From Gemmatimonadales bacterium (GTDB lineage: Bacteria > Gemmatimonadota > Gemmatimonadetes > Gemmatimonadales > GWC2-71-9), in contig DAINRR010000010.1 in the NCBI GenBank assembly GCA_036741715.1, forward strand, positions 136-64,135: DNA of 64,000 nucleotides. Reading direction: 5' to 3'. Positions 21,598-63,592 of this stretch are shown one piece after another. How positions within the stretch are numbered: the first letter of the stretch is position 1; every line of letters begins with the position of its first letter. The notes under the pieces are model-generated. The model did not search any database and had not been told where the DNA came from. It worked only from the letters and a program-made list of their open reading frames with translations. The position numbers and the translations under genes were made by a program.

Positions 21598-21750
21598 GCA
21601 CACGAAAACACGAAAGAACGAAGGCATGAATGGCTACGGCTTCGGGCCCCGCTGCAAAAAAACAGCTCCGGACCCGCCCGGGATCCGAAGCCGACCGTGG
21701 ACATACGTCCACAATGCCTTCTTTTCTTTCGCGTTTTCGCGCTTTCGCGA
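21598..21750. repeat. Inverted-arm element with 8-nt units (ACACGAAA subtype)
   Basis: Left arm GCACACGAAAACACGAAAGAACGAAGGCAT; right arm ATGCCTTCTTTTCTTTCGCGTTTTCGCG; internal stems. The first 18 nt are identical to 28743-28760. Confidence 0.85.
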
Positions 21751-21852
21751 TTCTACCAGCCCCCCACCCGCATCACCCTCAACCGCCCGCACGCCACAAC
21801 GGCCCCCGTTCACCGCCGCCCTCTTTCGCCCCCGCGCGGCACGGTCGACTGT

Positions 21853-22701
21853 CTAGCGCAGCCACTCCACGTTCACGTTCCCGATCGTCGTCGACAGCGA
21901 GATCTCGACCTTGCGCTCCGATGCTGCGTAGCCCGGCGAGAGATAGATGTTGCCCTCGCGCGTCCAGCCGGCGTCGGCGAAGCTCGCGAGGAACTTCGCC
22001 ATCTCCACACGTACGCCGACATTCCTCGGCAGCCGCAGGGTCAGTTCGCCCATCGTCATCGAGACGTCGAGCTTCGCATCCGAGGCCCACACGCCGCTCA
22101 GGTCGAGGAGGGCCGTGCCGACGCCGCCGCTGAAGGTGATGCGGTCGCAGCGGCTGTTGCCGAGCCCGGTCAGGATCACTTCCGCCGCGCCCGCCTCGAT
22201 GACCGCGGCGCTGCACGGTGCCAGGTTCGGCGTCGAGAAGCGAATGGCCGATCGGCTCGCGCCGGTGCCGATCCGGAGCGTGGTGACCCGCAGGCCGCCC
22301 AGCTCGATGTCCGCATCCACCGCGCCGAGTGCCACGTCGAGCGCGAGCGAAACCGACGGCGAGAGGTGTACGACCGCCGTCTGCTCGAGATGCTCGCGCG
22401 ACGAGACGCGAATCCCCGACCGGCCCGTGCTTTCGAGCCCGAGGTGGACCGAGCCGGCGACAGGATCGAAGCGGCTGATCGGCCGGAAGCGTTCGGTATC
22501 GTACGCGAGCTGGAGACCGTAGAGGCGGCTGGGCGGTCCGGGGGCGAGCCGGAGAGACCCGGCACCGAAATCGAGGCGGGTCGAGAGGCGGCTTTCACCG
22601 TGCCGCTGACGCGCGGAACTGAACTCCCGCATCTGCTGCGCCGCACCGGCTGCCGGGACGAGCAGCAGGGCGGCAGCCATCGCGAGGACCCCGCGCGTCA
22701 C
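21853..22701 (-). CDS. Secreted beta-rich protein (LiaF/DUF2154-like)
   Basis: Signal peptide ending GAAQ; repeated beta motifs (LDVALGAVDADIELGG, LDVSMTMGELTLRLP); GTGA coupling. Confidence 0.7.
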   Translation of the reverse strand: MTRGVLAMAAALLLVPAAGAAQQMREFSSARQRHGESRLSTRLDFGAGSLRLAPGPPSRLYGLQLAYDTERFRPISRFDPVAGSVHLGLESTGRSGIRVSSREHLEQTAVVHLSPSVSLALDVALGAVDADIELGGLRVTTLRIGTGASRSAIRFSTPNLAPCSAAVIEAGAAEVILTGLGNSRCDRITFSGGVGTALLDLSGVWASDAKLDVSMTMGELTLRLPRNVGVRVEMAKFLASFADAGWTREGNIYLSPGYAASERKVEISLSTTIGNVNVEWLR

Positions 22702-23993
22702 GCGCCGGGTCCGGTGGTGCGACTGCCCGCGCCCGGCCGCTTGACGGCGGGGACGCCGAACTGCGGGGTGGCCCAGAGGTACTCGTCCGTCAGCGCTTCG
22801 GGGGGGATGATGCGGCCGGCAAAATTCTCCCGGATCCCCGCCCGGCTCAGCAGGGCGGCGCCGAGGCCGGCGGTCGCGAGGAGCCAGGTGACGAGCACCG
22901 CCGCTCCGCGGATCAGGGCGCCCGCGACAGGCACCCACCCGAACAGGGCCCACGCGAGCCAGAGCGCGGTCGTCGCAACGAGGCCGACGAGGAGGAACTG
23001 ATAGCTTCCCGGCGCGCCGACCAGGATCCCCTGGGCGAGCCGGCGGCGCGTGTAGGTCTCTCCCATTGCATGCGCCACGGCGAGGTAACCACCCACGACG
23101 CCGATGATAACCAGGAGCAGGTAGACCGCGACGGCGAACGGCAGCAGCAGAATCCCGGCGACGCTCAGCACGAGCCCGACCACGAGCATCCCGAATGTCG
23201 GGAGGATGAGGATCTGCCCGACGAGTCCGGTGACGAAGGAGCGACCGAAGCTGTGGGAGACGGTATCCGAGACCACCTGCAGGTTCTGCCGGCCGAACGC
23301 GGCGAGACCACAGCCCAGCGCCGCCAGCGCCAGGAAGACGCCCACCACGCCGGCGAGCCGCCGAAGCGTGGCCGCTCCCGCGGACAGCGGCGGATCGGCG
23401 GCGGCTACCTGGGTGGTCGATGCACTCAGCGTCCGCGCCTCGCCGCCGATCTCGCCGCCCCGATCGTGCACGGCGCCGTGGATCGCGACGACGTCGCCCG
23501 AGATGACCGCGCCCGGGTGGACGACGATGTCGCCGTCGTAGGTGACGAGGTTCCCCTGCAGGCGGCCGAAGATCTGCGCGTCGCCGCGGACCACGAGCAG
23601 GTGACCGGCGATCGACTGATCCGAGCCGACGCTGTACGCCCCCAGACGGGCCGTGCCGTTGGGGATCGTGACCCGCATTTCGCTTTCGGGCAATGCGGCG
23701 AGGCGGTTCAGGTGCTCTTCGAGGGCGAGGGGGTTCGAGAGATCGGAGAGGTCGAGCGAAAGGCCCTGCGGCGGCGCCTCGGGAATGGCCTGCGGCTGCG
23801 CGGCCTGCGGACGGGACCGCACCGTGCGGACCGAATCGCTTCCTTCGCCCCGGATCTGCTGCAGGAACTGCCAGATATCCCGTGCGGCTCCGGCGGCGAC
23901 ATCGGCCGCATCCCCGGGATCCGCCTGGACGGGCCGGGCCGAGCCGCCGCCGACCAGCAGCGCAAGCGCGAGGGCGACGCTAGGCGTGCGCAT
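22698..23993 (-). CDS. Membrane protein with polymer-forming/bactofilin-like N-domain and C-terminal TM bundle
   Basis: Signal peptide; beta-repeat GDAQIFGRLQGNLVTYDGDIVVHPGAVISGDVVAIHG; four TM helices. Confidence 0.7.
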   Translation of the reverse strand: MRTPSVALALALLVGGGSARPVQADPGDAADVAAGAARDIWQFLQQIRGEGSDSVRTVRSRPQAAQPQAIPEAPPQGLSLDLSDLSNPLALEEHLNRLAALPESEMRVTIPNGTARLGAYSVGSDQSIAGHLLVVRGDAQIFGRLQGNLVTYDGDIVVHPGAVISGDVVAIHGAVHDRGGEIGGEARTLSASTTQVAAADPPLSAGAATLRRLAGVVGVFLALAALGCGLAAFGRQNLQVVSDTVSHSFGRSFVTGLVGQILILPTFGMLVVGLVLSVAGILLLPFAVAVYLLLVIIGVVGGYLAVAHAMGETYTRRRLAQGILVGAPGSYQFLLVGLVATTALWLAWALFGWVPVAGALIRGAAVLVTWLLATAGLGAALLSRAGIRENFAGRIIPPEALTDEYLWATPQFGVPAVKRPGAGSRTTGPGA

Positions 23994-24588
23994 GCGCCCC
24001 TCCCTGTGGAGGAAGGGCCATCAGCTTCCGCAGCGCGAAGACACCGCCGAGATAGACCGTCGAGATCACCGCGGAGAGAATGGCGAGGCGGGTCGGTGAG
24101 CCGAGGAAGCCGCGCGCCGCGGCATACCACGGCTGCTCCATCAGGTTGGCCGCACCGCCACGGACGGCGATCCAGAGCCAGCCGACGGCCTCGCCGCCGA
24201 GCCACGAGCCGGCCGCCGCGAGGGTCTCGCGATTGCCGAGCGTCCAGATGATGCTTGCCGCCATCGCGCCGACCACGATGATGGCGACCGAAGCCGCTGC
24301 GGCAAGCGAGCGCCGCGTGGCGAACATCCTGCGCCGCGCGGTGCCGAACGAGTGGAGCGCGAACGGGTCGGGCAGTACCACGCGCGCCATGACCTGCTCG
24401 GGGAATTCCGCCGAAGGGGCAAAGCGTGAGAGCGACTCCAGTCGCGTGACGAGCGTGCGATCCGCGGCGACCTGCTCGCGGCACGAGGCGCATTCGTCGA
24501 GGTGCCGGTGCGCGTCCTGGCTCGCGGCGCCCTCGAGGAGGGCGTCGAAATCGTCGGACGACAGGTGCGGATTCGCGGACCGGGTCAT
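23980..24588 (-). CDS. Zinc-binding anti-sigma factor (zf-HC2/ZAS)
   Basis: N-terminal His plus HLDECASC (HxxxCxxC), followed by TM segments; directly downstream of the ECF sigma gene. Confidence 0.85.
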   Translation of the reverse strand: MTRSANPHLSSDDFDALLEGAASQDAHRHLDECASCREQVAADRTLVTRLESLSRFAPSAEFPEQVMARVVLPDPFALHSFGTARRRMFATRRSLAAAASVAIIVVGAMAASIIWTLGNRETLAAAGSWLGGEAVGWLWIAVRGGAANLMEQPWYAAARGFLGSPTRLAILSAVISTVYLGGVFALRKLMALPPQGGAHAHA

Positions 24589-24625
24589 AAGTGAACCCTC
24601 CTACGGCAGGTATTCATCGAAGGTT

Positions 24626-25231
24626 TCATTCGCGGAGGTGGGCGAGCGACTGTCGCAACTCGTTACGCGCCCGGTGGATGTACGTCTTCACCGTACCGAG
24701 GGGAAGATTGAGGATTTCGGCGATTTCCTCGTACGCGCGGCCCTCGACGTGGCGGAGGAGAATGCAGGAGCGGTACTCGGGCCGGAGCCGGCCGATGGCC
24801 GCCTCGATGGCGCCGCCGAGCTCCTTCGCTTCGACGGCATCGAGAGGGGACTCGAGCCGGTTCCCGATCTGCAGCGCCGTCGCCTCCATCGCCTCGGGCG
24901 TCTCGGCGTGCGGCGAGCCGTCGAGCGAGAGGGTATCGAGCTCGCGCCGGCGGAGGTGATCGATCGCCGCGTTGTTGGCGATCTTGAAGATCCAGGAGGA
25001 GAACTTGAACTCGGGACGGTACGACTCGATGGCGTTGAGCGCCTTGACGAACGTCTCCTGGGCGAGGTCCTCGGCGAGCTCGCGATCGCGCACCATGCGG
25101 AAGACCAGCGAGAAGATCGGCCGCTCGTAGCGGCGGATCAGCTCGCGGTACGCCGGCTCGTGGCCCGTGCGTGCGAGGGCCACGACTTCCTGGTCCGTCG
25201 CGGCGGCGAGCGCGGCGCGCCGATCGGTCAC
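24626..25231 (-). CDS. ECF RNA polymerase sigma-70 factor
   Basis: AEDLAQETFVKA, FSSWIFKIANNAAIDHLRR and GTVKTYIHRARNELR; regions 2 and 4 only. Confidence 0.95.
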   Translation of the reverse strand: MTDRRAALAAATDQEVVALARTGHEPAYRELIRRYERPIFSLVFRMVRDRELAEDLAQETFVKALNAIESYRPEFKFSSWIFKIANNAAIDHLRRRELDTLSLDGSPHAETPEAMEATALQIGNRLESPLDAVEAKELGGAIEAAIGRLRPEYRSCILLRHVEGRAYEEIAEILNLPLGTVKTYIHRARNELRQSLAHLRE

Positions 25232-25285
25232 AGGCCGTGCCCGCTGCTTGCGGCGGGGCTCCGCAGGGGACTACATTCTGCGCCT

Positions 25286-26017
25286 ATGTTCGCCTCGGAT
25301 CGTGAGTTACCAGTCTCGGGCGGGGCGGAGAAGCGGGCCTACGTCCGCCAGATGTTCACCGCCGTCGCGCCCACGTACGACCGGCTCAACCGCATCATCA
25401 GCATGCGGCTGGATCTGTACTGGAGACGCAAATCGGTCGAGCAGCTCGACTGGGAGCGGGCTCCGGCCGGCCGCTATCTCGATCTCTGCGCCGGCACGCT
25501 CGATTTCGCCGCCATCCTCTCGCGCCAGCCGGGATTCCGCGGCCGGATCATCGGCGCGGATTTCGTACAGCCGATGCTCGAGCTCGGACGGCACAAGTCG
25601 GCTCGCGTCGATCCGGTCACGGCCGACGCCCTCGAGCTGCCCTTTCCTGATGCCGCGTTCGACGGCGCCGTGGTAGGATGGGGCGTCCGGAACCTGGCCG
25701 ACCTCGATGCCGGGCTCCGGGAAGCGGCGCGCGTCCTGAGGCCGGGAGCGCGGCTCGTCGTGCTCGAAATGAGCACGCCGCCGCACCAGCCGCTGCGCGG
25801 GCTGTATCTGGCCTACTTCGAGCACGTGCTGCCGCGCATCGGACGGTTGATCTCGAAACATACGACGGCGTATGACTGGCTTCCAGAGTCCGCCCGCGTC
25901 TTTCCCGATCCGCCGGAGCTCGCGCGCCGTCTGGAAGCCGCCGGATTCGCCGACGTCCGCTACACCCGCTTTCTTGGCGGGGTCACGGCAATGCACGTGG
26001 GAATTCGAAAGGAATGA
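25286..26017 (+). CDS. ubiE: UbiE/MenG family methyltransferase (demethylmenaquinone methyltransferase)
   Basis: VRQMFTAVAPTYDRLNRIIS, LDLCAGTLD, GVRNLADLDAGLREAARVLRPGA and YDWLPES. Confidence 0.9.
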   Translation: MFASDRELPVSGGAEKRAYVRQMFTAVAPTYDRLNRIISMRLDLYWRRKSVEQLDWERAPAGRYLDLCAGTLDFAAILSRQPGFRGRIIGADFVQPMLELGRHKSARVDPVTADALELPFPDAAFDGAVVGWGVRNLADLDAGLREAARVLRPGARLVVLEMSTPPHQPLRGLYLAYFEHVLPRIGRLISKHTTAYDWLPESARVFPDPPELARRLEAAGFADVRYTRFLGGVTAMHVGIRKE

Positions 26018-26031
26018 TCTGTTCTTGATCT

Positions 26032-26267
26032 TGAACCGCGGAGGCGCGGAGGCGCGGAGACACCACGGAGGGCTCCTGGTTGGGGTGGCTCCGTGAACAG
26101 TGTGAGGTTCCGTGAGGATTTTTGTGGGCTCGCCCACCGGCTCCGCGCGCCGGAGGAAGCCGGAGCCTTCAGAAAAATCAAAGCCGGATGGCTGCCCGGT
26201 GCACGGCGCTCTTCAATTCACGGAGCCCCTCCGCGTTCCCTCCGCGCTTCCGCGCCTCCGCGGTTCA
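26032..26267. repeat. Inverted-arm element with 8-nt units (GCGGAGGC subtype)
   Basis: Perfect 19-bp IR TGAACCGCGGAGGCGCGGA (26032-26050) / TCCGCGCCTCCGCGGTTCA (26249-26267), extending imperfectly to about 45 bp. Confidence 0.9.
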
Positions 26268-26294
26268 CAATGAAGCTTTCAACAAGTTCAATCA

Positions 26295-27773
26295 ATGGCG
26301 ATTGACAGTCTGCGGGACTTCATCACGGAAATCGACGCGATCGGCGAGCTGGTCCGGGTCACCGAACCGGTCCGGGCTCGGCTCGAGGTGGCCGAGATCG
26401 CGGATCGGTGCATGAAGAGCCCGGGCGGAGGGCCGGCGCTGCTGTTCGAGCAGGTGATCCTCGACAACGGCGAGCGCAGCGCGCACCCGGTGGCCATCAA
26501 TCTCTTCGGCTCGATGCGCCGGATGTGCCTGGCACTCGGGGTGCAGTCGCTCGATGAGGTGGGCGGGCGGATCTCGCAGCTTCTCGACCTCAAGGTGCCC
26601 GACGGACTGTTCGGGAAGCTCTCGATGCTCCCGAGGCTCGCGGAAGTCGCGAAGTTCCCGCCGAGAACCCGGAGCGGTCGGGCACCCTGCCAGGACGTGG
26701 TGCTTCAGGGACGCGAGGTGGATCTCGATGCGATCCCGTTCCTCACCACCTGGCCCGGCGATGGCGGCCGCTACATCACCCTGCCCATGGTGATCACCAC
26801 CGACCCCGCGCGCGGAACGCGCAACGTCGGGATGTATCGCATTCAGGTGCTCGGCCGGGACACGCTCGCCATGCACTGGCAGCGGCACAAGGTCGGTGCC
26901 GCGCACTGGCGCGACATGGCGGCGCGCGGCGAGCGGATGCCCGTGGTGATCGCGCTCGGCGGCGATCCGGCGAGCATCTACTCGGGCTCGGCGCCACTGC
27001 CTCCGAACATCGACGAGTTCATTTTCGCCGGCTTCCTCCGGAGAGCACCGGTCGAGCTCGCCAGGGCGATCACGTGCGATCTCGAGGTGCCCGCCGAGGC
27101 GGAAATGGTGATCGAGGGCTACATCGATCCGGCCGAGGAGCTCGTGCTGGAGGGACCCTTCGGCGACCACACGGGATTCTACTCGCTCGCCGACTACTAC
27201 CCGAAGGTGCACGTCACGGCGATCACCATGCGCCGGAACCCGATCTATCCGGCGACGCTCGTCGGGAAGCCGCCGATGGAAGACTACTATCTCGGCCATG
27301 CCACCGAGCGCATCTTCCTGCCGCTGCTCCGGCTCACGGTTCCCGAGATCGTGGACTACCACATGCCCGCGGCCGGGATCTTCCACAATCTCGTCTTCGT
27401 GTCCATCGACAAGCAGTATCCGGGGCAGGCCTACAAGGTCATGAACGCCCTCTGGGGCCAGGGACTGATGTCCCTGGCGAAGGTCCTGGTGATCGTGGAT
27501 CGCGAGATCGATGTCCGCAACCCCGATGAGGCGTGGTGGGCCGCCCTCAACAACATCGATCCGGAGCGCGACGTGCGCTTCACGATGGGACCGGTGGACG
27601 TCCTCGACCATGCGAGCCGCGCCTTCACCTACGGCAGCAAGATGGGCATCGACGGTACGCGGAAGTGGCCGGAAGAGGGGTTCGCACGCGAGTGGCCGGA
27701 CGTGATCGAGATGGATCCGGCGACGAAGGCGCGCGTCGATGAGCTGTGGCCGAAGCTGGGCATCACCTTGTGA
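26295..27773 (+). CDS. ubiD: UbiD family prFMN decarboxylase (MqnL-like)
   Basis: GGGPALLF, INLFGS, RNVGMYRIQV, MHWQRHK, EGPFGDHTGFYS and GKPPMED. Confidence 0.95.
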   Translation: MAIDSLRDFITEIDAIGELVRVTEPVRARLEVAEIADRCMKSPGGGPALLFEQVILDNGERSAHPVAINLFGSMRRMCLALGVQSLDEVGGRISQLLDLKVPDGLFGKLSMLPRLAEVAKFPPRTRSGRAPCQDVVLQGREVDLDAIPFLTTWPGDGGRYITLPMVITTDPARGTRNVGMYRIQVLGRDTLAMHWQRHKVGAAHWRDMAARGERMPVVIALGGDPASIYSGSAPLPPNIDEFIFAGFLRRAPVELARAITCDLEVPAEAEMVIEGYIDPAEELVLEGPFGDHTGFYSLADYYPKVHVTAITMRRNPIYPATLVGKPPMEDYYLGHATERIFLPLLRLTVPEIVDYHMPAAGIFHNLVFVSIDKQYPGQAYKVMNALWGQGLMSLAKVLVIVDREIDVRNPDEAWWAALNNIDPERDVRFTMGPVDVLDHASRAFTYGSKMGIDGTRKWPEEGFAREWPDVIEMDPATKARVDELWPKLGITL

Positions 27774-28690
27774 GCCACGGAGGCGCGGCCACGCGGAGGA
27801 CGCAGGAAGGACAGACGTTCGGCGGCGACTCGCTGCTGATCCGGTACGTCAACTTCGTGAAGCTGCCGCATACCCTCTTTGCGCTGCCGTTCGCGCTGCT
27901 CGGCGTTCTGGCGGCCTCGCGCGTCGCGCCGGTCGAGTGGCGGACGGTCCTCTGGGTCGTCGTCGCATTCTCCGCGGCGCGCTGGGTCGCGATGGGGTTC
28001 AATCGCATCGCGGACCGCGCCTACGATGCGCGCAATCCCCGGACGATGAACCGCGAGCTGCCGAAGGGGACGCTCTCGCTCGGGCAGGCCTGGACGTCGG
28101 TTGCCCTGGCGTCGGCGCTGTTCGTCGTCGCGGCATGGTCGCTCAACCCGCTTTGTGCCCTGCTGAGCCCTGTCGCGCTCGCGTGGATCGTCGCCTACAG
28201 CTTCGCGAAGCGGTTCACGTCCTGGCCGCATCTCTGGCTCGGGATGAGCCTCGCGATCGCGCCCGTGGGCGGTTATATCGCCGTGACGGGCGCGTGGAGC
28301 CGGCCGGCGTGGCTGCTCGTCGCGATCACGATCGGCGTCGCGACGTGGGTGGCCGGATTCGACATCTTCTATGCGCTCCCCGACGAGTCGTTCGACCGAT
28401 CGGAAGGTCTCCGGAGCGCCGTGGTCCGCCTCGGCCAGCGCCGCGCGATCCTCGCGGCCAAGCTCCTGCACGGCGCCACGATCCCGGCACTCGCGCTGTT
28501 CGGGTGGGGTGCGGGGTTCGGGATCTGGTACTACGCCGGCCTTCTCGTGGCCGCAGGCATTCTCGCCTACGAACACCGGCTTGTGACGCCCGGCAACCTC
28601 TCGCGTCTCGACGCCGCGTTCTTCACGATGAACGGCGTGATGAGCGTGACGGTCTTCATCTTCGCGCTGGCGGACAGGCTCGTTCGATAG
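27770..28690 (+). CDS. ubiA: UbiA family prenyltransferase (MqnP-like)
   Basis: KLPHTLFALPFA, AMGFNRIADRAYDARNPRTMNRELP, YSFAKRFT and GFDIFYALPD. Confidence 0.93.
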   Translation: MSHGGAATRRTQEGQTFGGDSLLIRYVNFVKLPHTLFALPFALLGVLAASRVAPVEWRTVLWVVVAFSAARWVAMGFNRIADRAYDARNPRTMNRELPKGTLSLGQAWTSVALASALFVVAAWSLNPLCALLSPVALAWIVAYSFAKRFTSWPHLWLGMSLAIAPVGGYIAVTGAWSRPAWLLVAITIGVATWVAGFDIFYALPDESFDRSEGLRSAVVRLGQRRAILAAKLLHGATIPALALFGWGAGFGIWYYAGLLVAAGILAYEHRLVTPGNLSRLDAAFFTMNGVMSVTVFIFALADRLVR

Positions 28691-28742
28691 AACCGTCGAA
28701 GGCGGCGGGAGCGACCATCGGGGACAGGGAACCGTTTCAAAA

Positions 28743-28867
28743 GCACACGAAAACACGAAAGCGCGAAGGGGCCCGATTTCGGGCGAGGCTCCCAGCTCCG
28801 CCCCAGCTCAAAGTCTTTCGTAGTGTTCGTGTTTTCGCAGTTTCCCTGTTTTCGTGTTTTCGTGTGC
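28743..28867. repeat. Inverted-arm element with 8-nt units (ACACGAAA subtype)
   Basis: Perfect 18-bp IR GCACACGAAAACACGAAA (28743-28760) / TTTCGTGTTTTCGTGTGC (28850-28867). Confidence 0.9.
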
Positions 28868-28921
28868 GGCAGTTTACTACTCCCGGGCTGATTCTCACCT
28901 CGCACGCCGATCCGAGGTCCG

Positions 28922-29509
28922 ATGACCCGACAGCTTCCAACGGTACTTGCGATCACGGGTGCGAGCGGGGCGCCGTATGCGGTGCGGCTCCTCGAGGTGC
29001 TCACGCGGGCTCGAGTGCCGGTCTGGCTCATCGTCTCCGGCCACGGCATGCGACTCCTGCAGGAGGAGTGCGGAATCGGCAGTCTCGAGGCACTCGAGGG
29101 GGCCGTGGCCGCAGAGGGGTCCGATGTGCGGACCTTCACCGACTCGGATCGCGGCGCGAAGCCGGCCTCGGGATCGCAGCCGACGGCGGGGATGGTGATC
29201 TGTCCCTGCTCGATGGGCACACTGTCGGCCGTTGCCCACGGCTCGAGCCGCTCGCTCATCGAGCGCGCGGCCGACGTGACGCTCAAGGAGGGGCGGAAGC
29301 TGGTGCTCGTGCCGAGGGAGACACCACTCTCGCTGGTCCACCTGCGGAACATGGCCGCCTGCGTCGAGGCGGGCGCCACCGTGCTGCCGGCGGCGCCCGG
29401 CTTCTATCACCGGCCGACGCGGGTCGCGGAGCTCGTGGATTTCGTCGTGCAGCGGATCGTGGACCAGCTCGGACTCGGCCTCGACATCACGCGCCGCTGG
29501 GAGGGGTGA
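28922..29509 (+). CDS. ubiX: Flavin prenyltransferase UbiX
   Basis: AITGASGAPY, ASGS, PCSMGTL, RAADVTLKEGRKLVLVPRETP and PAAPGFYHRP. Confidence 0.96.
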   Translation: MTRQLPTVLAITGASGAPYAVRLLEVLTRARVPVWLIVSGHGMRLLQEECGIGSLEALEGAVAAEGSDVRTFTDSDRGAKPASGSQPTAGMVICPCSMGTLSAVAHGSSRSLIERAADVTLKEGRKLVLVPRETPLSLVHLRNMAACVEAGATVLPAAPGFYHRPTRVAELVDFVVQRIVDQLGLGLDITRRWEG

Positions 29510-29510
29510 G

Positions 29511-29993
29511 GTGCGGCTCGGCATCATTTCCGATACCCACAATCTGCTGCGGCCGGAAGTCTTCGACATCTTCCGCGAGGTGGACCACATCATCCACGCC
29601 GGGGACATCGGCGAGCCGGATATCCTGACGTCGCTCGAGGCGATTGCGCCGGTCACGGCGGTGTACGGCAACACCGACGGCTGGGAAATTCGGAGCCGGG
29701 TGCCGCAGGTGGCGAAGGTCCGGCTCGACGGCTTCGACTTCGTGGTGACCCATGGCGATCAGCTCGGGCGGCCGACGCCGGAGACGCTGCATGCGGCATT
29801 CCCCGAGGCGGAAATTCTCGTCTACGGTCACACCCACCGGCCGCTCATCGAAACGGTGGACCTCGTGGTGACCGTGATGAATCCCGGCGGCGCCGGTCCG
29901 GCACGCTTCGACATTCTCCCGTCGGTCGGCATCATGGAGCTCGAGCCAGGCATCCCGCCGCGGGCCCGGCTGGTTCCGCTCACGGACGACTGA
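29511..29993 (+). CDS. Metallophosphoesterase (YfcE/MJ0936 family)
   Basis: ISDTH, IHAGD, GNTD, THGD, GHTH and NPG motifs. Confidence 0.92.
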   Translation: MRLGIISDTHNLLRPEVFDIFREVDHIIHAGDIGEPDILTSLEAIAPVTAVYGNTDGWEIRSRVPQVAKVRLDGFDFVVTHGDQLGRPTPETLHAAFPEAEILVYGHTHRPLIETVDLVVTVMNPGGAGPARFDILPSVGIMELEPGIPPRARLVPLTDD

Positions 29994-30002
29994 GGGCGTC
30001 TC

Positions 30003-31235
30003 GTGCCGGCATCGATTCGAATCCCGCGCCGCAATATCGCGTTGCTGCTGGCGGCAGCGGCGTGCGCCCCATCGGAGCCGGCATCCGCCCCGGTATCCGT
30101 TCGAGACAGCAGCGGCATCCGCATCGTCGAACACGACATGGCGCAGCTCACCGCGACCTGCAGGGCGGATTCGGTTCCGTCACTCACGATCGGGGTGGCG
30201 GAGGGTCCGGAGGAGTACCAGTTCCATCGCATGTTCGGCGCGACGCAGTTGTCCGATGGCCGAATCGTGATCGTCAACCAGGGCAGTGAGGAAATCCGCT
30301 ACTACGCCCCCGACGGAGCGTTCCTGCGGCGGGCTGGGCGTGCAGGGCAGGGCCCCGGCGAGTTCTCCAACGCCTTCTACCTCTGGCCCGCGCGCGGCGA
30401 CACGGTCTTTGTCGGCGACTACGATCCGTGGCAGTTCGAGGTCTTCGCGCCCGACGGAACATGGCTCCGCAGCGTGCAGCCATCACCGGCGTACGTGAAT
30501 TCGCCCGGCGTCATCGTCGTGCTCGCAGACGGCAGGTCCGTGCTCGCCGAGGATCCTTTCCCCCTGTCGCGGGGACCCGGATTCGAGATGCAGGAGTACG
30601 TGCTCGTCGTCCACGCCGCCGACGGCACGCTGCTCGACACGCTGTTGCACCTTCCGAACGCCAGACTCGGCACGCTCGATGGGAGGCCGGAGAGCGTGCG
30701 GATCTATCCGCTGTTCGAGTCCTTCGCCGAGGTGGCGGGACGCGGCGCGCGGCTGGCCGTGGGCCACGGTTCCCGGCCGGAGCTGCAGCTGTATGCCGGC
30801 GAGACCGGGCTCACGCTCGAATCGATCATCAGGTGGTCCGGCGACGATCGTTCGATCACGCCGGACGCCATCGATGCCGCACGGGCGAGCCTTGCCGTGA
30901 TGTATCCCGATATGAGGGAGGATGAGCGAAAGCATTTCGTCGGGCCCCTGATCGACCCGGCACGGCCCGTAGCCGACAGCTTTCCGGCGTTCCAGGAAGT
31001 GATGATCGGGAGCGACGGCCGGATCTGGGTGCAGCAGTACCGTCGGCCGGGCGACGAGATCGAGCAGCGGTGGATGGCGTTCGACCCTCGGGGTCGTTTT
31101 GCCTGCAGGACGGCCGTGCCGGTGGGCGAAGAGGTGCTCGAGTTCGGCGACGACTTAATCCTGGTCGAGGATCCGGACCCGGATGGCGTGGAACGGGTAT
31201 CGCGGCTCAGGCTGGGATCACTTCAGTCGGAGTGA
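30003..31235 (+). CDS. Putative lipoprotein, beta-propeller-like
   Basis: Lipobox AAAC; GRAGQGPGEF motif typical of 6-bladed propeller proteins. Confidence 0.7.
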   Translation: MPASIRIPRRNIALLLAAAACAPSEPASAPVSVRDSSGIRIVEHDMAQLTATCRADSVPSLTIGVAEGPEEYQFHRMFGATQLSDGRIVIVNQGSEEIRYYAPDGAFLRRAGRAGQGPGEFSNAFYLWPARGDTVFVGDYDPWQFEVFAPDGTWLRSVQPSPAYVNSPGVIVVLADGRSVLAEDPFPLSRGPGFEMQEYVLVVHAADGTLLDTLLHLPNARLGTLDGRPESVRIYPLFESFAEVAGRGARLAVGHGSRPELQLYAGETGLTLESIIRWSGDDRSITPDAIDAARASLAVMYPDMREDERKHFVGPLIDPARPVADSFPAFQEVMIGSDGRIWVQQYRRPGDEIEQRWMAFDPRGRFACRTAVPVGEEVLEFGDDLILVEDPDPDGVERVSRLRLGSLQSE

Positions 31236-31247
31236 GGGAGCGCGCGC

Positions 31248-31613
31248 TCAGGCGTCGGTCGGCGCCGTCAGTGTCTCGTGAACGACGTTCCCGGTGTTCC
31301 GCACGCCGAGCGGCTCGAAGAGGAGGAGGGTCACTTCCTCCTCCGCGACCGGCCGGTGCTCGACCCCGTGCCCCACGATGAGGAACTCCCCCGGTCCGAT
31401 CTCCCGCGCGCCCTCCCTGAATTCGATCCGGAGCCGCCCCGAGATCACGAGGAAGAGCTCGTCCTCGGCTTCGTGATGGTGCCAGACGAATTCGCCCTTC
31501 ACTCGCACGAGCTTGACCGCCTGTCCGTTCAACTCCCCGACGAGCCTGGGCCGCCAGTGCTCGGTGATCGCTCCGAGGGCCGCCTCGAGGTTCACGACAT
31601 CCGGCAGGCTCAT
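31248..31613 (-). CDS. Cupin domain protein
   Basis: GEFVWHHHEAEDELFLV...GVEHRP cupin motifs. Confidence 0.92.
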   Translation of the reverse strand: MSLPDVVNLEAALGAITEHWRPRLVGELNGQAVKLVRVKGEFVWHHHEAEDELFLVISGRLRIEFREGAREIGPGEFLIVGHGVEHRPVAEEEVTLLLFEPLGVRNTGNVVHETLTAPTDA

Positions 31614-32182
31614 CCCGCCGCCTCGTACGCCGCCGCGATCCAGCGGAGGAGCTCATCGTCCACCTGGGAGGGCTCGATCACTCTCACCTTGTAGTTGCAC
31701 ATCTGCCCGGCCGGCAGCGCTTCGAGTCGCGCGGTTCCGGTCAGCCCCTTCACGTTGAGTCCGACCTCGATTCGCGAATTGGTGGCTGGTCCGATCGTCG
31801 CGAACTGCTTTCTGCGCCGGTAGCTGATGTAGGCCTTCTTCGGCGCTTCCTCGAATTCGCCGAAGGTCCGAATCGCCTTCAGCAGGGCCTCGTGAATCGG
31901 GCGGAGCGTGGCTTTCGGACCGGCATAGAGGTCATCGAGCGCCTGCGCGGGAGTCGGGTCACCCACGCCGGCGCCCGAGGCTTCCGCCTTGCGGATCGAG
32001 TGCACCAGCGTGTTGGCATCGCCGTGTCCCATCCCGAGCTGCGACTTGAGCATGGCGACGATCTCGCCATGCTTCGTCAGCCGGCTCTGCTGCACGACCT
32101 CCGTGAGCTCGGCGAGGGACTTCCCGGTGCGTTTTTCGATGTTGGCGAGCTGGGTGGCGACCGCCTTGTCGAGATCGGCCAT
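31610..32182 (-). CDS. DUF4287/DUF5655-like protein
   Basis: NIEKRTGKSLAE...LKSQLGMGHGDANTLV then PKKAYISYRRRKQFA; GGAG RBS. Confidence 0.8.
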   Translation of the reverse strand: MADLDKAVATQLANIEKRTGKSLAELTEVVQQSRLTKHGEIVAMLKSQLGMGHGDANTLVHSIRKAEASGAGVGDPTPAQALDDLYAGPKATLRPIHEALLKAIRTFGEFEEAPKKAYISYRRRKQFATIGPATNSRIEVGLNVKGLTGTARLEALPAGQMCNYKVRVIEPSQVDDELLRWIAAAYEAAG

Positions 32183-32263
32183 GAGGCGACTCCGTCTGGA
32201 AGGTGATGCGGTCCGGTCCGTGGCCTTACGGTGGTTTCGGCCGATTGGTGACCGCGCCGGGCC

Positions 32264-33373
32264 TCAGGCGGGAGCCCAGTCGGCGAGCGGGCTCGTGCGC
32301 TTGAGCGCCTCCGGGTGTGCCCGGAACCACGACTGCATCAGCAGGATCTCGTCGATCGACTCGAGCGGGAGGGCTCCGGTGGGCGGCGCGGGGCGGTCGA
32401 GCTCGGCCTGGACCACGGCACGGAAGGCCTCTTCCTCGATCGGTGTCGCCGGCCAGGGATACGAGGCACGCACGACACCCTGGCGCAGGACGTAGGCGCG
32501 GTCGTCGCCCCGGTCGCCCGGATCTCGATAGACGAAAGTGAGGAGGTCGATCGCCGAGCGTGCGCGGCTCGTCGCGGCGAGGAGCCATTCGAGCTGCTCG
32601 AAACGCTCGCGCCACCGACCTGCCAGCTCGAATTCCGCCTCTTCGGCCGCCCGGCTCATCTCCGTCACGACGCGGTCGATCGGCTTGATCGTCCGCCCCT
32701 CGAGAAACGCCGCGGCTGTCTCCACCCGTTGACGGTAGGCCCACTCCGCGATGAATCCGGCGCACGGCGCACCGCACGAGCCGAACTCGTGGCGGGGGCA
32801 CGCGGCGCGGCGGTCGGCGCCGAACAGGTCGGCCTGACCGGAAAACACCATGGGCATGTTCGCCGCGCAGTCCCGCAGACCGAGGAGGTCGTTGAGCGTG
32901 CGCACCGCCTCCTGCGTGCGCTCCATCGAGCGGAACGGCCCGTAGACACGCTCATCGCCTGCCGCGACCGCACTCCCTGCGTGGACCCGCGGCGCAGGGC
33001 CGCCGGAGATCTTGATGAGGACGGAGCGCCGGGTGCGGTTGAGCTTGAAGTTGAAGTGCGGGCGGTACTCGCGGATCTGGCGGAGCTCGGTAAGGAGCGC
33101 GGCGAACTCGCTCGGGACATAGGTCCACCGGATCTCGTGCGCCGCATAGAGGATGCGCGCCGCCTTGTCCGCGGGATACTCGGCCCGAAAGTAGCAGAGC
33201 AGCCGTGTCCGGAGCCGTTTCGCCTTTCCGACGTAGAGGATCTTTCCCGTCCCATCGATCATCTGGTACACCGCGGGCCGGTTCTCGGCCAGCGCGCGCA
33301 CCCGCGTGCGAAGGTGGTCGAGATCGGTCGCCGGCAGCGCCAGCAGGCGGGTGCGGCGCTTCAGTGCTGGCAT
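32264..33373 (-). CDS. GIY-YIG endonuclease, truncated UvrC/Cho-like
   Basis: PAVYQM...ILYVGKAKRLRTRLLCYF, ELRQIREYRPHFN, YGPF, four-Cys cluster and UVR coiled coil; no RNase H or HhH C-terminus. Confidence 0.85.
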   Translation of the reverse strand: MPALKRRTRLLALPATDLDHLRTRVRALAENRPAVYQMIDGTGKILYVGKAKRLRTRLLCYFRAEYPADKAARILYAAHEIRWTYVPSEFAALLTELRQIREYRPHFNFKLNRTRRSVLIKISGGPAPRVHAGSAVAAGDERVYGPFRSMERTQEAVRTLNDLLGLRDCAANMPMVFSGQADLFGADRRAACPRHEFGSCGAPCAGFIAEWAYRQRVETAAAFLEGRTIKPIDRVVTEMSRAAEEAEFELAGRWRERFEQLEWLLAATSRARSAIDLLTFVYRDPGDRGDDRAYVLRQGVVRASYPWPATPIEEEAFRAVVQAELDRPAPPTGALPLESIDEILLMQSWFRAHPEALKRTSPLADWAPA

Positions 33374-34188
33374 CGATGGCAGAACACGGTGGACCGCCCG
33401 TCGATGAGGTGTGTCAGCGTGAGCCGGGTGCCGCACCGGCGGCACGGCTCGCCTTCCCGGCCGTAGACCAGGAGCTCGAACTGGAAGTTTCCCTTCTCGC
33501 CGGTGCCGGTGCGGTAGTCGCGGAAGGTGGTGCCCTTCGATCGGATCGCCGCCGTGAGGATCCGGCGGACTTCGGCGTGGAGTGCGGCGTATTCGGCCGC
33601 CGTCACGCCTTTGGCAGGGCGCGACGGATCGATCCGCGCCGCGAACAGCGCTTCGTTCGCATAGATGTTCCCCACGCCCACCACGTATCGCTGGTCCATC
33701 AGCACCTTCTTGATCGCCTGGCGGGAGCGGCCGAGTCGTCCGGCGAAATCGTCTGCGGTGAATTCGGGGTCGAGCGGCTCGGGGCCGAGCGCCTCGTCGT
33801 ACTGCCGCCATGCCGCGTCACTCAGGAGGAGGAGTGTTCCGAGCCGCCGCACGTCCCGGTAGACGAGCTCCCGCCCGTCGTCGAGCGCCGCCCGGAGCAC
33901 GGCGTACCTGGCGTCCGCACCTGCCAGCGGCTCCTCCGCGATGAAGAGCACTCCGCTCATGCCCGGCTGGATCACGAGGCGGCGACCGGTGTCGAGCGCG
34001 AGGACGGCGTGCTTCGCGCGGCGCGACAGATCGACGACCTCGGCGCCCCGGAGCCCGGCGAGGAGGCGGCGGCGAGTGACATCCCGCAGGACATCGTCGT
34101 GAGAGAGGGCAGCCCGGAGAATCGTACGGCCCAAGAGCGCCGGGCGCAGGTCGCGCACGATCGTCTCGACTTCGGGGAGCTCGGGCAT
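33361..34188 (-). CDS. mutM: Formamidopyrimidine-DNA glycosylase
   Basis: MPELPEVET, RRAKH, DVRRLG, LGPEPL, GVGNIYANEALF and zinc finger CRRC...CHRCQ. Confidence 0.97.
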   Translation of the reverse strand: MPELPEVETIVRDLRPALLGRTILRAALSHDDVLRDVTRRRLLAGLRGAEVVDLSRRAKHAVLALDTGRRLVIQPGMSGVLFIAEEPLAGADARYAVLRAALDDGRELVYRDVRRLGTLLLLSDAAWRQYDEALGPEPLDPEFTADDFAGRLGRSRQAIKKVLMDQRYVVGVGNIYANEALFAARIDPSRPAKGVTAAEYAALHAEVRRILTAAIRSKGTTFRDYRTGTGEKGNFQFELLVYGREGEPCRRCGTRLTLTHLIDGRSTVFCHRCQH

Positions 34189-34214
34189 TCTTGATTGAAG
34201 ATAGGATGGGAGGG

Positions 34215-34254
34215 CGGAAGGACGGAAGGACGGAAAGACGGACAGACGGAAGGA
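34215..34254. repeat. Solo arm of 8-nt units (ACGGAAGG subtype)
   Basis: CGGAAGGACGGAAGGACGGAAAGACGGA (34215-34242) is an exact 28-nt reverse-complement match to 63552-63579. Confidence 0.85.
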
Positions 34255-34299
34255 TGCGTGGTCCGCCGGACGTGCGGCGAGCGTGTTCGCAGTGTTCGA

Positions 34300-35031
34300 T
34301 CAGTTCTGCGGGATCGTTTCGGCGGCAGCCTGCTGGTTGCGGTGAATGGACGGCCCCCGATCGCGGACGATCAGCGAGTAGCCGAGCCAGATGAGCAGAA
34401 GTCCGAGGAGCTCCGTGACGTAGAGGACCTCGGTGTATCCCATGCGGGTGTACATCCCGCCGATGCCCGGCAGGATCGCGCCGATGGCAATGGCGATGTT
34501 TCCCCACATGCGGTTCTCCGCGCCGATCTGGCGGAGGTACCTGCCGGCGGACCAGAAGGCGCCGCCGATGAGGAGGATCACGGCGTACAGGTTCACGAAG
34601 GGAGACACGAGCCGCACCCGGGGCCAGGCGAATACCTTGCCGCTCAACCGGAACGGCTCGACCAGCTCGTAGCTGATCGGCGAGGCGAGCACGAGCGCGG
34701 CTCCGAAGCCGATGACGAGGAGCAGGGCGATCGTGAGCCCGTCGGCGACGCGCCGCGGAAGGAGGAGGTACGCGGTTCCCTGCGCCAGCGGGGCGCCGCC
34801 GAGCAGGGCGCCCGTGATGTACCATGCGCGAAACACCGGCTCCTGCCATCCGAGCAAGGTGGTGAGGCTCTCGGTGAGCGTACCCGCGCCGTAGGCCACC
34901 AGCCCGAGGAACCACCAGAAGAGATATCTCGCGCCGGGCCGCCGCCGCCAATGCCGCCACAGCTGGACGGCAAAGACCGCCGACAGGATCGTCGTCAGGA
35001 TCGGGATGTAACTGATCAGCGAGAGGCGCAT
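34300..35031 (-). CDS. Hypothetical integral membrane protein (about 7 TM)
   Basis: Hydrophobic segments with AWYITGALLGGAPLAQGTAY; coding-like codon usage. Confidence 0.75.
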   Translation of the reverse strand: MRLSLISYIPILTTILSAVFAVQLWRHWRRRPGARYLFWWFLGLVAYGAGTLTESLTTLLGWQEPVFRAWYITGALLGGAPLAQGTAYLLLPRRVADGLTIALLLVIGFGAALVLASPISYELVEPFRLSGKVFAWPRVRLVSPFVNLYAVILLIGGAFWSAGRYLRQIGAENRMWGNIAIAIGAILPGIGGMYTRMGYTEVLYVTELLGLLLIWLGYSLIVRDRGPSIHRNQQAAAETIPQN

Positions 35032-46666: not shown

Positions 46667-46710
46667 GCGCCATCCGGCCCGGCCCATGTTGTGGCCGCGC
46701 CGGATGGCGC
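46667..46710 (+). terminator. Stem-loop after nrfA (possible terminator or stabiliser)
   Basis: Perfect 12-bp IR GCGCCATCCGGC / GCCGGATGGCGC; no U-tract. Confidence 0.45.
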
Positions 46711-50481: not shown

Positions 50482-50539
50482 TCGCCGTCCCGCGCCTCCG
50501 ATTTCCCGCGCTTCCGGTTTTCCGCTACTTTCTCCCGAT

Positions 50540-52138: not shown

Positions 52139-52141
52139 TGC

Positions 52142-54906: not shown

Positions 54907-54956
54907 GCTATCGTTTACGTTCCCCTTTTTCATCCCGCAGCCCAAGAAGCCGTCGC

Positions 54957-57182: not shown

Positions 57183-57189
57183 GCCTGCC

Positions 57190-57678
57190 GTGCACGCCCC
57201 TGGCGCCGCTCCGCCCGCAGGGGTGCGTGTCTCCCTGATCGATCTCTACGTGCTGCGTGGCGCGGGGCCGGACCTCCGGTGCCTCGTGCTTCGCCGCGCG
57301 CGCGGAACCCGGTGTACGGGCGCCTGGGAGGTGGTGCACGGTCACATCGAGCCGGGGGAGACACCGGTCGAAGCCGCGCGGCGCGAGATGCTGGAGGAGA
57401 CCGGCCTCACGCCGTCACGGCTCTTCAACGTGAGCCGCGTCGAGGTGTTCTACCAGCATCGCAGCAACGAAGTCGCCCTCGTTCCGGTGTTCGCCGCCTT
57501 CGTGGATCCCGGCTCCGAGCCCGCGCTCGGCAACGAGCACGACCGCGCGGAATGGCTGACGCCCGAGGATGCGCGGGCGCGCGTTGCCTGGCCGCGCGAG
57601 GCACGCGCCATCGAGGACATCGTCCGGATGTTCGGCACGGGCGACGCAGGTGTGATCGGGGACGTGCTGGAGATCTGA
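57190..57678 (+). CDS. NUDIX hydrolase
   Basis: Nudix box GHIEPGETPVEAARREMLEETGL; EHDRAEW. Confidence 0.9.
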   Translation: MHAPGAAPPAGVRVSLIDLYVLRGAGPDLRCLVLRRARGTRCTGAWEVVHGHIEPGETPVEAARREMLEETGLTPSRLFNVSRVEVFYQHRSNEVALVPVFAAFVDPGSEPALGNEHDRAEWLTPEDARARVAWPREARAIEDIVRMFGTGDAGVIGDVLEI

Positions 57679-57758
57679 CGGATGTGGCCGCGCCGCGCAC
57701 TCGCGCGTCTCATACCGCAGGCCACCCCAACCGCAGCCGCAAAGGACCGATTTCTTCC

Positions 57759-61335: not shown

Positions 61336-61355
61336 CGTGCGGCGGGGCGTGCCGT

Positions 61356-62201: not shown

Positions 62202-62252
62202 GGGATCTCCTGGTGCCGGGGCTGGTGCTCGCCGACGGTCGGGCGGCGCGGA

Positions 62253-62885
62253 CTACCTCGGCGTGGCCGCCAGCCGGTCGCGCTCCCGCTGCAGCTGCGG
62301 CAGCCGCCGCTCCCACTCGCGGGATGCGAGCGTCTCGTAGTTCACGGTGAACGGCTCCCACACCGGCAGCAGCTCCTCGAAGATGTAGACCGCCATCGCA
62401 CTCTCACGTGAGTTGAGCTGGGCGGCGCCGAAGCGGGGGCTCAGCGGCACGATGGCCATGGGCCGGAGGAACTGGTTGCGGGCGGTGAGCGTGAGGAGCT
62501 CGGGGTCGAACCGGGCCCCGGGCTGCAGCGCGAAGAAGGTGACGAGCGCGAGGCCCGGCTCGGAGACACCGGCCGCGCGCCCTGCGGAATCGATGGCCGG
62601 CCGGTTCCGCTCGACGAGCCGCTGGAGCGACTCCGCGCCGTCGCGCGCGAGGAGGGTCGTGATCCGGATGTCGAGCGGCACGAAGCGGATCTCGAGCTCG
62701 TCGGTGCGGAGCCGGATGGCGATCTCGTTCTGGCTGAGCGTGCCGTAGACCCCGGCCGGGACCACGACAGAATCGGAGGCGCCGGCCGGTGCCGTCGCCG
62801 CAGGAGGCGTCTGCGCCCGCGCGCAGGCGGCCGCGGTGGCGACCGAAACGAGGACCATCGCCAGCGAAGCGACCGTGCGTCTCAT
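62253..62885 (-). CDS. Hypothetical secreted protein or lipoprotein
   Basis: Leader [21 protein letters not shown]; ATGA coupling to engB. Confidence 0.65.
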   Translation of the reverse strand: MRRTVASLAMVLVSVATAAACARAQTPPAATAPAGASDSVVVPAGVYGTLSQNEIAIRLRTDELEIRFVPLDIRITTLLARDGAESLQRLVERNRPAIDSAGRAAGVSEPGLALVTFFALQPGARFDPELLTLTARNQFLRPMAIVPLSPRFGAAQLNSRESAMAVYIFEELLPVWEPFTVNYETLASREWERRLPQLQRERDRLAATPR

Positions 62886-63592
62886 GCCGTCTCCGGGTTC
62901 AATGCCGCGAGGATGCTCGCGCCGAGGTCGGCGATCCCCTGGCCCGTCTCGCTGCTCACGAGCTGCGTCTGGCTCTCGTCGAGCCCGAGGGCGCGGGCGA
63001 TGGCCCGGCTCTGTGTGACCTGTGCCTGCCGCCCGAGCTTGTCCGCCTTGGTGAACACCGCGAGCACCGATGTTCCCGACTCGATCAGGAGCTCCTGCAT
63101 CGCGATGTCGTCCTTCGAGGGCATGTGGCGCACGTCGAGCAGCCATACGACGCCCATCAGCCGCTCGCGCCGGCGCAGATAGCCGTCGACGAGCGTGCGA
63201 TAGCTCTCGCGCACGGACTTGCTCGCCCGCGCAAATCCGTAGCCCGGAAGGTCCACCAGGTAGAACTCCGGCAGCCGGAAGACGTTGATGTGAGCTGTCT
63301 TTCCCGGCGTGCCGCTGACGCGCGCGAGGCCCGCCCGGCCCGTGAGGGCGTTGAGCAGGCTCGACTTGCCGACGTTCGATCGGCCGACGAAGGCGATTTC
63401 CGGGAGGCTGGGAGAGAGCCGGACGGCCGGATCGGGGAAGCTGCCGATGAAGTCGACGGGGAGGTCGTAGAAGGGGCGGACGAAAGGACGGAAAGACGGA
63501 AGGACGGAAGGCGTCGCCGCGCGGCGGAGATCCTGCAGTTCCTTCGACCTTTCCGTCTTTCCGTCCTTCCGTCCTTCCGTCTCCCGGCTCAC
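62882..63592 (-). CDS. engB: Ribosome biogenesis GTPase EngB/YihA/YsxC with repeat-derived N-terminal extension
   Basis: [33 protein letters not shown] and TKADKL; GTG start overlaps the clpX stop. Confidence 0.95.
63479..63583. repeat. Inverted-arm element with 8-nt units (ACGGAAGG subtype) inside the engB 5' coding region
   Basis: Perfect 18-bp IR AGACGGAAGGACGGAAGG (63494-63511) / CCTTCCGTCCTTCCGTCT (63565-63582) with further units on both arms. Confidence 0.9.

Follow-up and report, generated by a model that had tools for sequence, protein, structure and literature searches.

Gene-less hairpin inserts with tandem-unit arms in a Gemmatimonadales chromosome and their probable kinship with GxxExxY and four-helix-bundle cassettes

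Palindromic insertion elements and the intervening sequences (IVS) of ribosomal RNA (rRNA) are already known kinds of bacterial insert. The IVS of Coxiella burnetii 23S rRNA is a selfish element of 428-444 nt with a 28-bp terminal stem; it holds an S23p open reading frame (ORF) with two to three tandem GACAGAT heptamers, in strain-variable number, just upstream of the ATG (PMC4990558). RNase III cuts the stem, with the 5' cut falling at the start of the first repeat, and the origin of the element was stated to be unclear (PMC4990558). Rickettsia palindromic elements (RPE) are inserted in frame in protein-coding genes and translated, and the terminal repeats of Correia elements, once transcribed, are a substrate of RNase III and are cut there; the 2024 review of prokaryotic MITEs (miniature transposable elements with inverted repeats) mentions neither tandem-unit arms nor Gemmatimonadota (PMC10969869). 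Here we analyse a 64-kb stretch of DNA from a Gemmatimonadales bacterium (contig DAINRR010000010.1, positions 136 to 64,135; hereafter the window), in which six loci carry arms built of tandem 8-nt units. On balance we favour reading these loci as gene-less selfish hairpin inserts that belong to a class of tandem-unit-armed cassettes carrying GxxExxY or four-helix-bundle genes. The kinds of insert are thus familiar; what is new is a common frame for two uncharacterised protein families.

The Coxiella IVS is the sole experimentally studied element that we found with this layout, and is a relative by architecture and cargo. Like the class described here, it combines a long stem formed from terminal inverted repeats, a purine-rich region of tandem 7-nt units in the 5' arm and a four-helix-bundle cargo. 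The window elements differ from it in that they are gene-less, consist mainly of 8-nt units and lie in mRNA operons (one of them in coding sequence) rather than in rRNA helix 45.

The initial annotation of the window had described four two-armed elements (E1 to E4 below) and two solo arms. A lag scan for self-similarity found nine period-8 tracts in the window, all of them arms named in that annotation; at other lags the same scan gave one tract (lag 7), one (lag 10) and three (lag 11). The motif CGRAR-N3-CGRAR-N3-CGRAR matches ten times in the window against 0.04 expected from dinucleotide-preserving shuffles. Every feature described in the annotation is present at the coordinates given there; the parts are as follows.

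21598-21626: E1, left purine-rich arm, units ACACGAAA / GAACGAAG.
21627-21714, minus strand: E1, spacer, holding a terminator-like hairpin.
21715-21749: E1, right pyrimidine-rich arm, units CTTTCGCG.
26024-26275: E2, whole element, flanked by ubiE (end at 26017) and ubiD (start at 26295).
26032-26059 and 26227-26267: E2, arms, the first with three units GCGGAGGC.
28743-28867: E3, whole element, between ubiA (ends 28690) and ubiX (starts 28922).
28743-28769 and 28815-28867: E3, arms, units ACACGAAA / TTTCGTGT.
34212-34254, plus strand: solo purine-rich arm, five to six units GGACGGAA.
50488-50525, plus strand: solo pyrimidine-rich arm, CCG at 8-nt intervals, akin to the arms of E2 (CCGCGCCTCC).
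63473-63587, minus strand: E4, 115 nt, units GGACGGAA, arms 63478-63511 and 63541-63585.
21599-21624 and 21725-21753: lag-scan period-8 tracts of E1.
26032-26064 and 26238-26266: lag-scan period-8 tracts of E2.
28744-28769 and 28838-28866: lag-scan period-8 tracts of E3.
34207-34254: lag-scan period-8 tract of the solo purine-rich arm.
63477-63513 and 63547-63585: lag-scan period-8 tracts of E4.

In all four pairs the purine-rich arm lies on the left of the plus strand, as the annotation had it, and since the arms are inverted repeats, the purine-rich arm is the 5' arm on both strands. The perfect inverted repeats of 18-19 bp attributed to three of the four pairs were found in E2 (19 nt), E3 (18 nt) and E4 (18 nt), with E1 pairing less perfectly. 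The spacers measure 29-154 nt and the elements 105-250 nt, at a density of about one element per 10 kb; whole elements fold into long hairpins of -57 to -150 kcal/mol on either strand, that of E2 extending into its own 154-nt spacer. The arms end in GCACACG, TGAACCGC and GGGAGACGG. Exact links between distant loci also hold: an exact-match search showed the left arms of E1 and E3, 7 kb apart, to be identical over 19 nt, and the arm at 34212-34254 to match the right arm of E4, 29 kb away, over 28 nt in inverted orientation. Each unit family thus has two copies in the window. Both solo arms are present, one of them being less solitary than described, for 34212-34254 has a weak right-hand partner of a different unit type at about 34278-34296. 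The window pairs accordingly have two inverted arms with a stem of at least 18 bp, and arms of 7-9-nt units with a purine/G-rich 5' arm. No GxxExxY or four-helix-bundle gene lies between any of these arms, so the copies are filed as gene-less derivatives and not as full members of the class.

The class itself is seen most clearly outside the window. The initial annotation had suggested that similar arms bracket GxxExxY and four-helix-bundle genes in other bacteria, and this proved correct. The two cargo families are TIGR04256 (GxxExxY) and TIGR02436 (four-helix-bundle protein, alias S23p). We sampled the 80 metagenome loci most similar to our GxxExxY query, 77 of which were evaluable, and counted as bracketing any inverted repeat with a score of 15 or more. 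Such a repeat brackets the GxxExxY gene at 64 of the 77 loci, versus none of 77 after shuffling. Among the 64 cassettes, 45 have an upstream arm of period 8, 12 of period 9 and one of period 10; in 59 this arm is purine-rich. The median distance from arm to arm is 411 nt. The 16-mer CACGAAAACACGAAAG is common to the E1 and E3 arms and to arms of GxxExxY cassettes. Four-helix-bundle genes sampled from plasmids were bracketed likewise in six cases out of six, the hosts being Gemmatirosa (Gemmatimonadota, 8-nt unit), Nostoc, Geminocystis, Riemerella, Azospirillum and Picosynechococcus. GxxExxY cassettes share the orientation of the upstream gene in 52 of 60 cases, which suggests that the cargo is expressed by read-through. 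We take the GxxExxY protein to be a member of the PD-(D/E)xK nuclease fold; a sequence search of its profile against PDB chains gave no match.

Starting from the arms instead of the genes leads to the same architecture. A scan for CGRAA-N3 repeated four times, with one genome per species, returned at least 119 loci, which are a sample of taxa only; the matches listed are spread over many phyla, with Planctomycetota, Gemmatimonadota and Bacteroidota frequently represented. In planctomycetes and deltaproteobacteria the copies follow one stereotype, ATCA(CGAAANNN)x4 ... (NNNTTTCG)x4TGAT, and at one locus (L105) arms of this form exactly bracket a GxxExxY gene, lying 12 nt before its ATG and 21 nt after its stop. 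Four-helix-bundle genes adjoin such arrays at three further loci (L076, L101 and L119). Among the matches listed, a cargo gene is nearby at only four of the at least 119 loci, so that most copies appear to be cargo-less, as are those of the window. As an unselected comparison we used 196 kb of Gemmatimonadota DNA chosen without the pattern, which includes three of the window's own pairs; it contains inverted tandem-unit pairs of period 7 (three), 8 (six), 9 (one) and 11 (one).

A strict polarity runs through these data. The G/purine-rich arm comes first in all four window pairs, in all 15 of the pattern-scan matches listed that have a second, inverted arm within 30-170 nt, and in all 11 pairs of the 196-kb set. 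The purine/G-rich arm thus leads in all non-coding pairs that we looked at, and in almost every cassette.

Four further loci show variations on the cassette. On a plasmid of Picosynechococcus sp. PCC 7003 (L216, NZ_CP016476.1, 125976-127499), a tandem-unit-armed four-helix-bundle cassette lies between cas10 and cmr3, inside a type III-B CRISPR operon and co-oriented with both genes. In an Oscillatoria sp. (L106, about 3090-3230), nested left arrays, (GGGTGTR)n outside and (GCGGAAGA)x4 inside, face a right mirror (CACACCCY)n, a hairpin with two unit families. A Pirellulales GxxExxY gene (L027, 380-1100) is flanked by a direct duplication of the gene end plus purine arm, with a decayed pyrimidine arm between, in what looks like a tandem arrangement of cassettes. 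Gemmatirosa plasmid 1 (L211, NZ_CP007129.1, 1006983-1008530) has one purine arm (GGGCAGGA)n with two possible pyrimidine partners, a nearby arm that yields a gene-less hairpin and a second arm beyond a four-helix-bundle gene; it could be an intermediate between cargo-bearing and gene-less forms.

We compared the window with contigs that carry UbiD homologues and are syntenic with it, giving divergence as UbiD identity. The intergenic gaps that hold elements in the window are as follows.

ubiE to ubiD: 277 nt in the window; 0-19 nt in L125, L127 and L129 where covered (87-89% UbiD identity).
ubiA to ubiX: 231 nt in the window; 7 nt or gene overlap in L125, L127 and L129 where covered.
fpg to its upstream neighbour: 111 nt in the window; 1 nt in L125.
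DUF4126 gene to LiaF-like gene: 343 nt in the window; 33 nt in L127.

At every covered site L125, L127 and L129 thus have tight operons, with gaps of 0-33 nt, versus 111-343 nt at the filled window sites. The E3 site is empty (7 nt or gene overlap) in these three relatives and also in L126, a contig of 85% UbiD identity whose ubiA-ubiX gap is 7 nt and which yet has period-7 inverted-arm elements in two other gaps that hold window elements. These two elements (5639-5713 and 9892-9987), which occupy the counterparts of the window's E1 and E2 gaps, are built of 7-nt units (GGTAAGA; GAGTCAC/CGCGACT). Relatives at 91-96% UbiD identity have tandem-unit tracts in the same gaps, often of other units: CTTCGCGN units at ubiE-ubiD in L001, L002 and L003, the 7-nt unit GGTAGAC at ubiA-ubiX in L002, and GGATGGAA upstream of fpg in L002, the orthologous fpg-site tract of L001 also having other units. 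The UbiD protein identical to that of the window (P0001) is present on two contigs. Even two contigs with an identical UbiD protein differ at ubiE-ubiD, where L003 has both arms and the spacer and L002 the right arm only. Presence/absence polymorphism, on which the initial annotation had let its reading hang, is observed, as is the same unit family at several loci. Empty sites in relatives of 87-89% and other units in relatives of 91-96% together show the elements to be insertions of sub-lineage origin that have since altered fast at their sites. The 8-nt unit length noted originally holds for the window; among relatives, units of 7, 8, 9 or 11 nt occur.

The same comparison brought out two further features. 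In L127, whose ubi and fpg sites are empty, the gap that separates an alanine symporter gene from a DHH gene holds a solo arm of the ACACGAAA type (589-614), so the E1/E3 family is present there at different loci. In L005, from nearly the same strain as the window, a run of N at about 4240-4250 falls exactly at the expected left arm of E2; it seems that short-read assemblies break or are left with gaps at the arms.

E4 does not lie between genes: the engB reading frame contains it, at its 5' end. The window engB starts with a GTG at 63592-63590 that overlaps the clpX stop, and its 236-aa ORF reads through the whole E4 hairpin (63473-63592, minus strand). EngB homologues fall into two length classes of 200 and 236 residues, each of which includes proteins 98% identical to the window EngB, so that presence or absence of E4 is polymorphic at this level of protein identity. 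The empty allele (L217 and L218) includes the strings GCGTGAGGGGGGCTTTCTACGAC and GTGAGGGGGGCTTTCTAC, and its GTG start shares bases with the TGA stop of clpX; in the filled allele (window, L219 and L220) the 7 nt after GTGAG are swapped for the 115-nt element, a net gain of 108 nt or 36 codons. No alternative start codon precedes the conserved EngB N-terminus in the filled allele, and reading frame and length are kept in three diverged versions; for these two reasons E4 is most likely translated as a 36-residue N-terminal extension of EngB. A more distant EngB (P0140, 81% identity) retains only a pyrimidine-arm-encoded piece. Public gene calls give both EngB lengths. EngB is essential in bacteria where this has been tested.

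Pairing between the arms is maintained through divergence, by compensatory changes and by concerted changes of units. E2 aligns over its full length with the orthologue in L130 (96% UbiD identity); all 72 consensus pairs are intact, five of them with compensatory changes, and roughly a fifth of the spacer positions differ, versus hardly any in the arms. In the copy of E4 in L220, the left-arm unit has changed from GGACGGAA to GGTCGGAA, A to T in all four units, and the right-arm unit from TTCCGTCC to TTCCGACC, the complementary T to A in all four units, which gives four A-U to U-A compensatory pairs relative to the window. The pairing may have been kept by selection on RNA, by selection on DNA hairpins or by arm-to-arm conversion, and the data fit each of these.

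These observations can be joined into one account. By architecture the window loci fall into a class of small palindromic insertion elements in which 7-9-nt units, repeated in tandem, make up each arm, the purine/G-rich array being 5' on either strand; full-length members hold one small gene between the arms, GxxExxY or four-helix-bundle. The window copies would then be non-autonomous or decayed, gene-less forms, perhaps mobilised in trans by the protein that cargo-bearing copies encode. In this Gemmatimonadales lineage they would have entered at gene boundaries of tight operons and once in frame at the 5' end of engB, behaving as selfish or near-neutral DNA that is tolerated at gene boundaries, and in engB presumably because that insertion is in frame. 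After insertion, the arms would gain and lose units by slippage, with homogenisation keeping them complementary. When transcribed, they can pair into a stem of 25-50 bp, which by analogy with the IVS may be an RNase III substrate. The polarity may persist because transcription of a G/purine-rich arm ahead of its partner would at no time present a C-rich single strand on which Rho could load, and also because a purine-rich first arm could serve as a Shine-Dalgarno-like leader for the cargo. The initial annotation had called the elements non-autonomous members of a little-described mobile or recombinogenic system, which appears largely right in kind, the mechanism that it proposed being putative. 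From the diversity of units we infer, as it did, that periodicity and fold rather than sequence may be what is recognised.

Several points weigh against this account. No window copy has cargo, none of the cargo genes occurs in the 64 kb, and the trans-acting partner is putative. The length distribution of target-site duplications at 54 well-bounded cassettes equals that of the permuted control. The 83% bracketing comes from loci closest to the query and may not extend to the whole GxxExxY family, and among the sampled cargo-bearing arms a direct sequence counterpart was found only for the ACACGAAA family. At the RNA level, wobble-compatible mismatches in 11 elements number 17 on the gene strand versus 18 on the opposite strand, and the better-folding strand is the gene strand in only five of nine elements, giving no sign of selection on the sense RNA. 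Finally, cutting of E4 by RNase III would sever the engB mRNA; the position of E4 inside engB speaks against such cutting as a purpose common to all copies, and processing is unlikely to be the general role of the elements.

We weighed four other explanations. The elements might be RNA structures selected by the host, that is, operon-internal processing sites, stabilisers or attenuators of the REP/BIME kind (REP, repetitive extragenic palindromic) kept for tuning the flanking genes. Pairing conserved with compensatory changes next to spacers about 20% diverged would fit, as would gaps filled in several relatives and the terminator-like hairpin on the gene strand of the E1 spacer; the position of most copies between co-directional genes fits too. 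All six window elements lie between same-direction genes, which is uninformative since 48 of the 56 window gaps are of that type. Relatives at 87-89% UbiD identity, however, have these operons free of any element, with gaps of 0-19 nt, E4 lies within coding sequence and is polymorphic among EngB proteins of 98% identity, sense-strand G.U vs A.C changes show no asymmetry, and the same architecture surrounds selfish-looking small genes in many phyla; we regard host-selected RNA as unlikely. Still less credit goes to classical MITEs, deletion derivatives of insertion sequences (IS) moved by a DDE transposase that binds repeated sites in terminal inverted repeats. Small elements in several copies, with terminal inverted repeats and polymorphic presence, are as expected of MITEs; repeated subterminal binding sites occur in some transposons (Ac/Ds, Mu), and Correia, ERIC and other MITEs are likewise small non-coding inverted-repeat elements in intergenic spacers. 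MITEs, in contrast, have target-site duplications and IS-derived ends, whereas the elements here do not show that flanking duplication (no excess at the 54 cassettes, and at engB 7 nt replaced rather than duplicated, the other window sites being too diverged to judge) and end in short-unit arrays that differ among copies, with unit sequences varying widely inside one genome. Their full-length relatives carry a GxxExxY or four-helix-bundle gene of about 130 aa and not a transposase, and the window is without a transposase as well.

The same lack of duplication, a palindromic and mostly extragenic nature and the want of a transposase inside the element would suit REP or REPIN elements moved by RAYT (HUH, IS200/IS605-like) on single-stranded hairpins, and REP/BIME and REPIN-RAYT palindromes do sit at operon junctions. 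The conserved GTAG-type head is absent, however; the window elements are longer (100-250 nt), with variable spacers and periodic, tandem-unit arms, no RAYT or HUH/Y1 transposase domain occurs in the window, and the cargo genes of the relatives belong to other families, which makes this the least probable of the four. Break repair, in which units of 7-9 nt are repeatedly added by templating or slippage to both 3' ends where DNA has broken, in the manner of telomeres, the ends are then joined and the arms are remade at times, is about as improbable as a MITE origin. It would explain the strict polarity, the G/purine-rich unit being on the strand whose 3' end faces the centre, the replacement without duplication at engB, and the fact that window and L220 differ by the same base throughout the four units of either E4 arm. 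Against it, one genome holds several unit families side by side, arms and spacers are inherited together, cargo genes lie inside the arms and not outside, and slippage with arm-to-arm conversion explains the concerted change equally well; we also know of no bacterial enzyme that adds such units at 3' break ends.

Two described families resemble single aspects of the elements. RPE are, like E4, palindromic inserts of about 100-150 bp that lie in frame in genes and are translated; unlike the class described here, they have no reported relatives bearing GxxExxY or four-helix-bundle genes, and most window copies are intergenic. To our knowledge, tandem-unit arms are not a feature of RPE. Cyanobacterial short tandemly repeated repetitive sequences (STRR), reportedly described by Mazel et al. 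in 1990, are intergenic tandem arrays of 7-nt units, and the four-helix-bundle cassettes of Nostoc and Geminocystis have heptamer arms; STRR differ in being tandem fingerprinting arrays of another phylum with 7-nt rather than 8-nt units, and we know of none that form inverted pairs bracketing genes. A CRISPR array was considered and rejected, because the units are 8 nt and contiguous and the arms are inverted, versus repeats of 24-48 nt with unique spacers. We found no paper describing the class as a whole, which is weak evidence since most subscription journals lay outside the search, and no published full text containing the unit strings.

Beyond gene-less inserts of a cassette class, a wider proposal deserves mention as a tentative one that we hold to be possible rather than probable. 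The arms with a GxxExxY or four-helix-bundle gene could constitute a new, transposase-free mobile cassette that spreads through recognition of a periodic hairpin or cruciform and not of sequence; a structure-specific nuclease might, for instance, do the recognising and set off copying. The heptamer arrays of cyanobacteria, the Gemmatimonadales inserts and the 23S IVS would then be one multi-phylum system. The arms of such a cassette might be built by repeated addition of units at 3' ends.

The setting of the elements is an ordinary Gemmatimonadales chromosome with 69.5% G+C, and the closest matches of its UbiD protein are proteins assigned by NCBI to Gemmatimonadales MAGs. Among its approximately 56 genes, a Pfam search identified molybdopterin genes, iPGM, IMPDH, transporters, NifU/Mrp, ubiE-ubiD-ubiA-ubiX (menaquinone), fpg, purD, glmM/glmS, nrfHA, sensor kinases, dtd-maf, clpX and engB, and no transposase, integrase, HUH/Y1 enzyme or reverse transcriptase; the initial annotation was right that the window holds no transposase and that the elements are neither CRISPR nor GTAG-type REP. 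Local hidden Markov models found no GxxExxY or four-helix-bundle gene anywhere in the window, Rfam 15 gave no match at gathering score across it, and a tRNA scan of it was also empty. E1 is flanked by a LiaF-like gene (21853-22701, minus) and a DUF4126 gene (20841-21509, minus). On the minus (gene) strand of its spacer, from 21693 to 21663, a 13-pair GC-rich hairpin is followed by TTTTTTT, an intrinsic-terminator-like site downstream of a sigma-factor / LiaF-like operon. A scan for intrinsic terminators over 21000-35000, covering E1 to E3 and the fpg arm, accepted only this inner hairpin, no arm stem being followed by a T run; in a promoter and terminator consensus scan of the same interval, counts equalled the shuffle level and the inner E1 hairpin was the sole notable match. 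The arm at 34212-34254 is found upstream of fpg, at 18-24 nt from its start (ATG at 34188, minus strand). That at 50488-50525, to which Tandem Repeats Finder assigned period 16, is flanked by maf (stop 50481) and an FHA-GAF-cyclase gene (ATG 50540). Elsewhere, an 18-nt hairpin without tandem units (46667-46710; 94% complementary, 8-nt loop) follows directly after a cytochrome c552 (nrfA-like) gene and is probably an ordinary terminator or stabiliser.

Bacteria of many phyla encode two large, unexplained families whose sole annotation is 'GxxExxY protein' and 'four helix bundle protein / S23p'. These families and the rRNA intervening sequences, a puzzle of long standing, would come under one genomic definition, as cassettes enclosed by inverted arms that are polar and made of tandem units. 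Gene-less copies enter operons and an essential gene and seem to break short-read assemblies, so they matter for annotation, where they give false long ORFs and shifted starts, and for studies of operons and RNA processing. The elements also offer a tractable case of concerted, compensatory evolution, and their strict polarity without target duplications makes the question of how they move directly testable.

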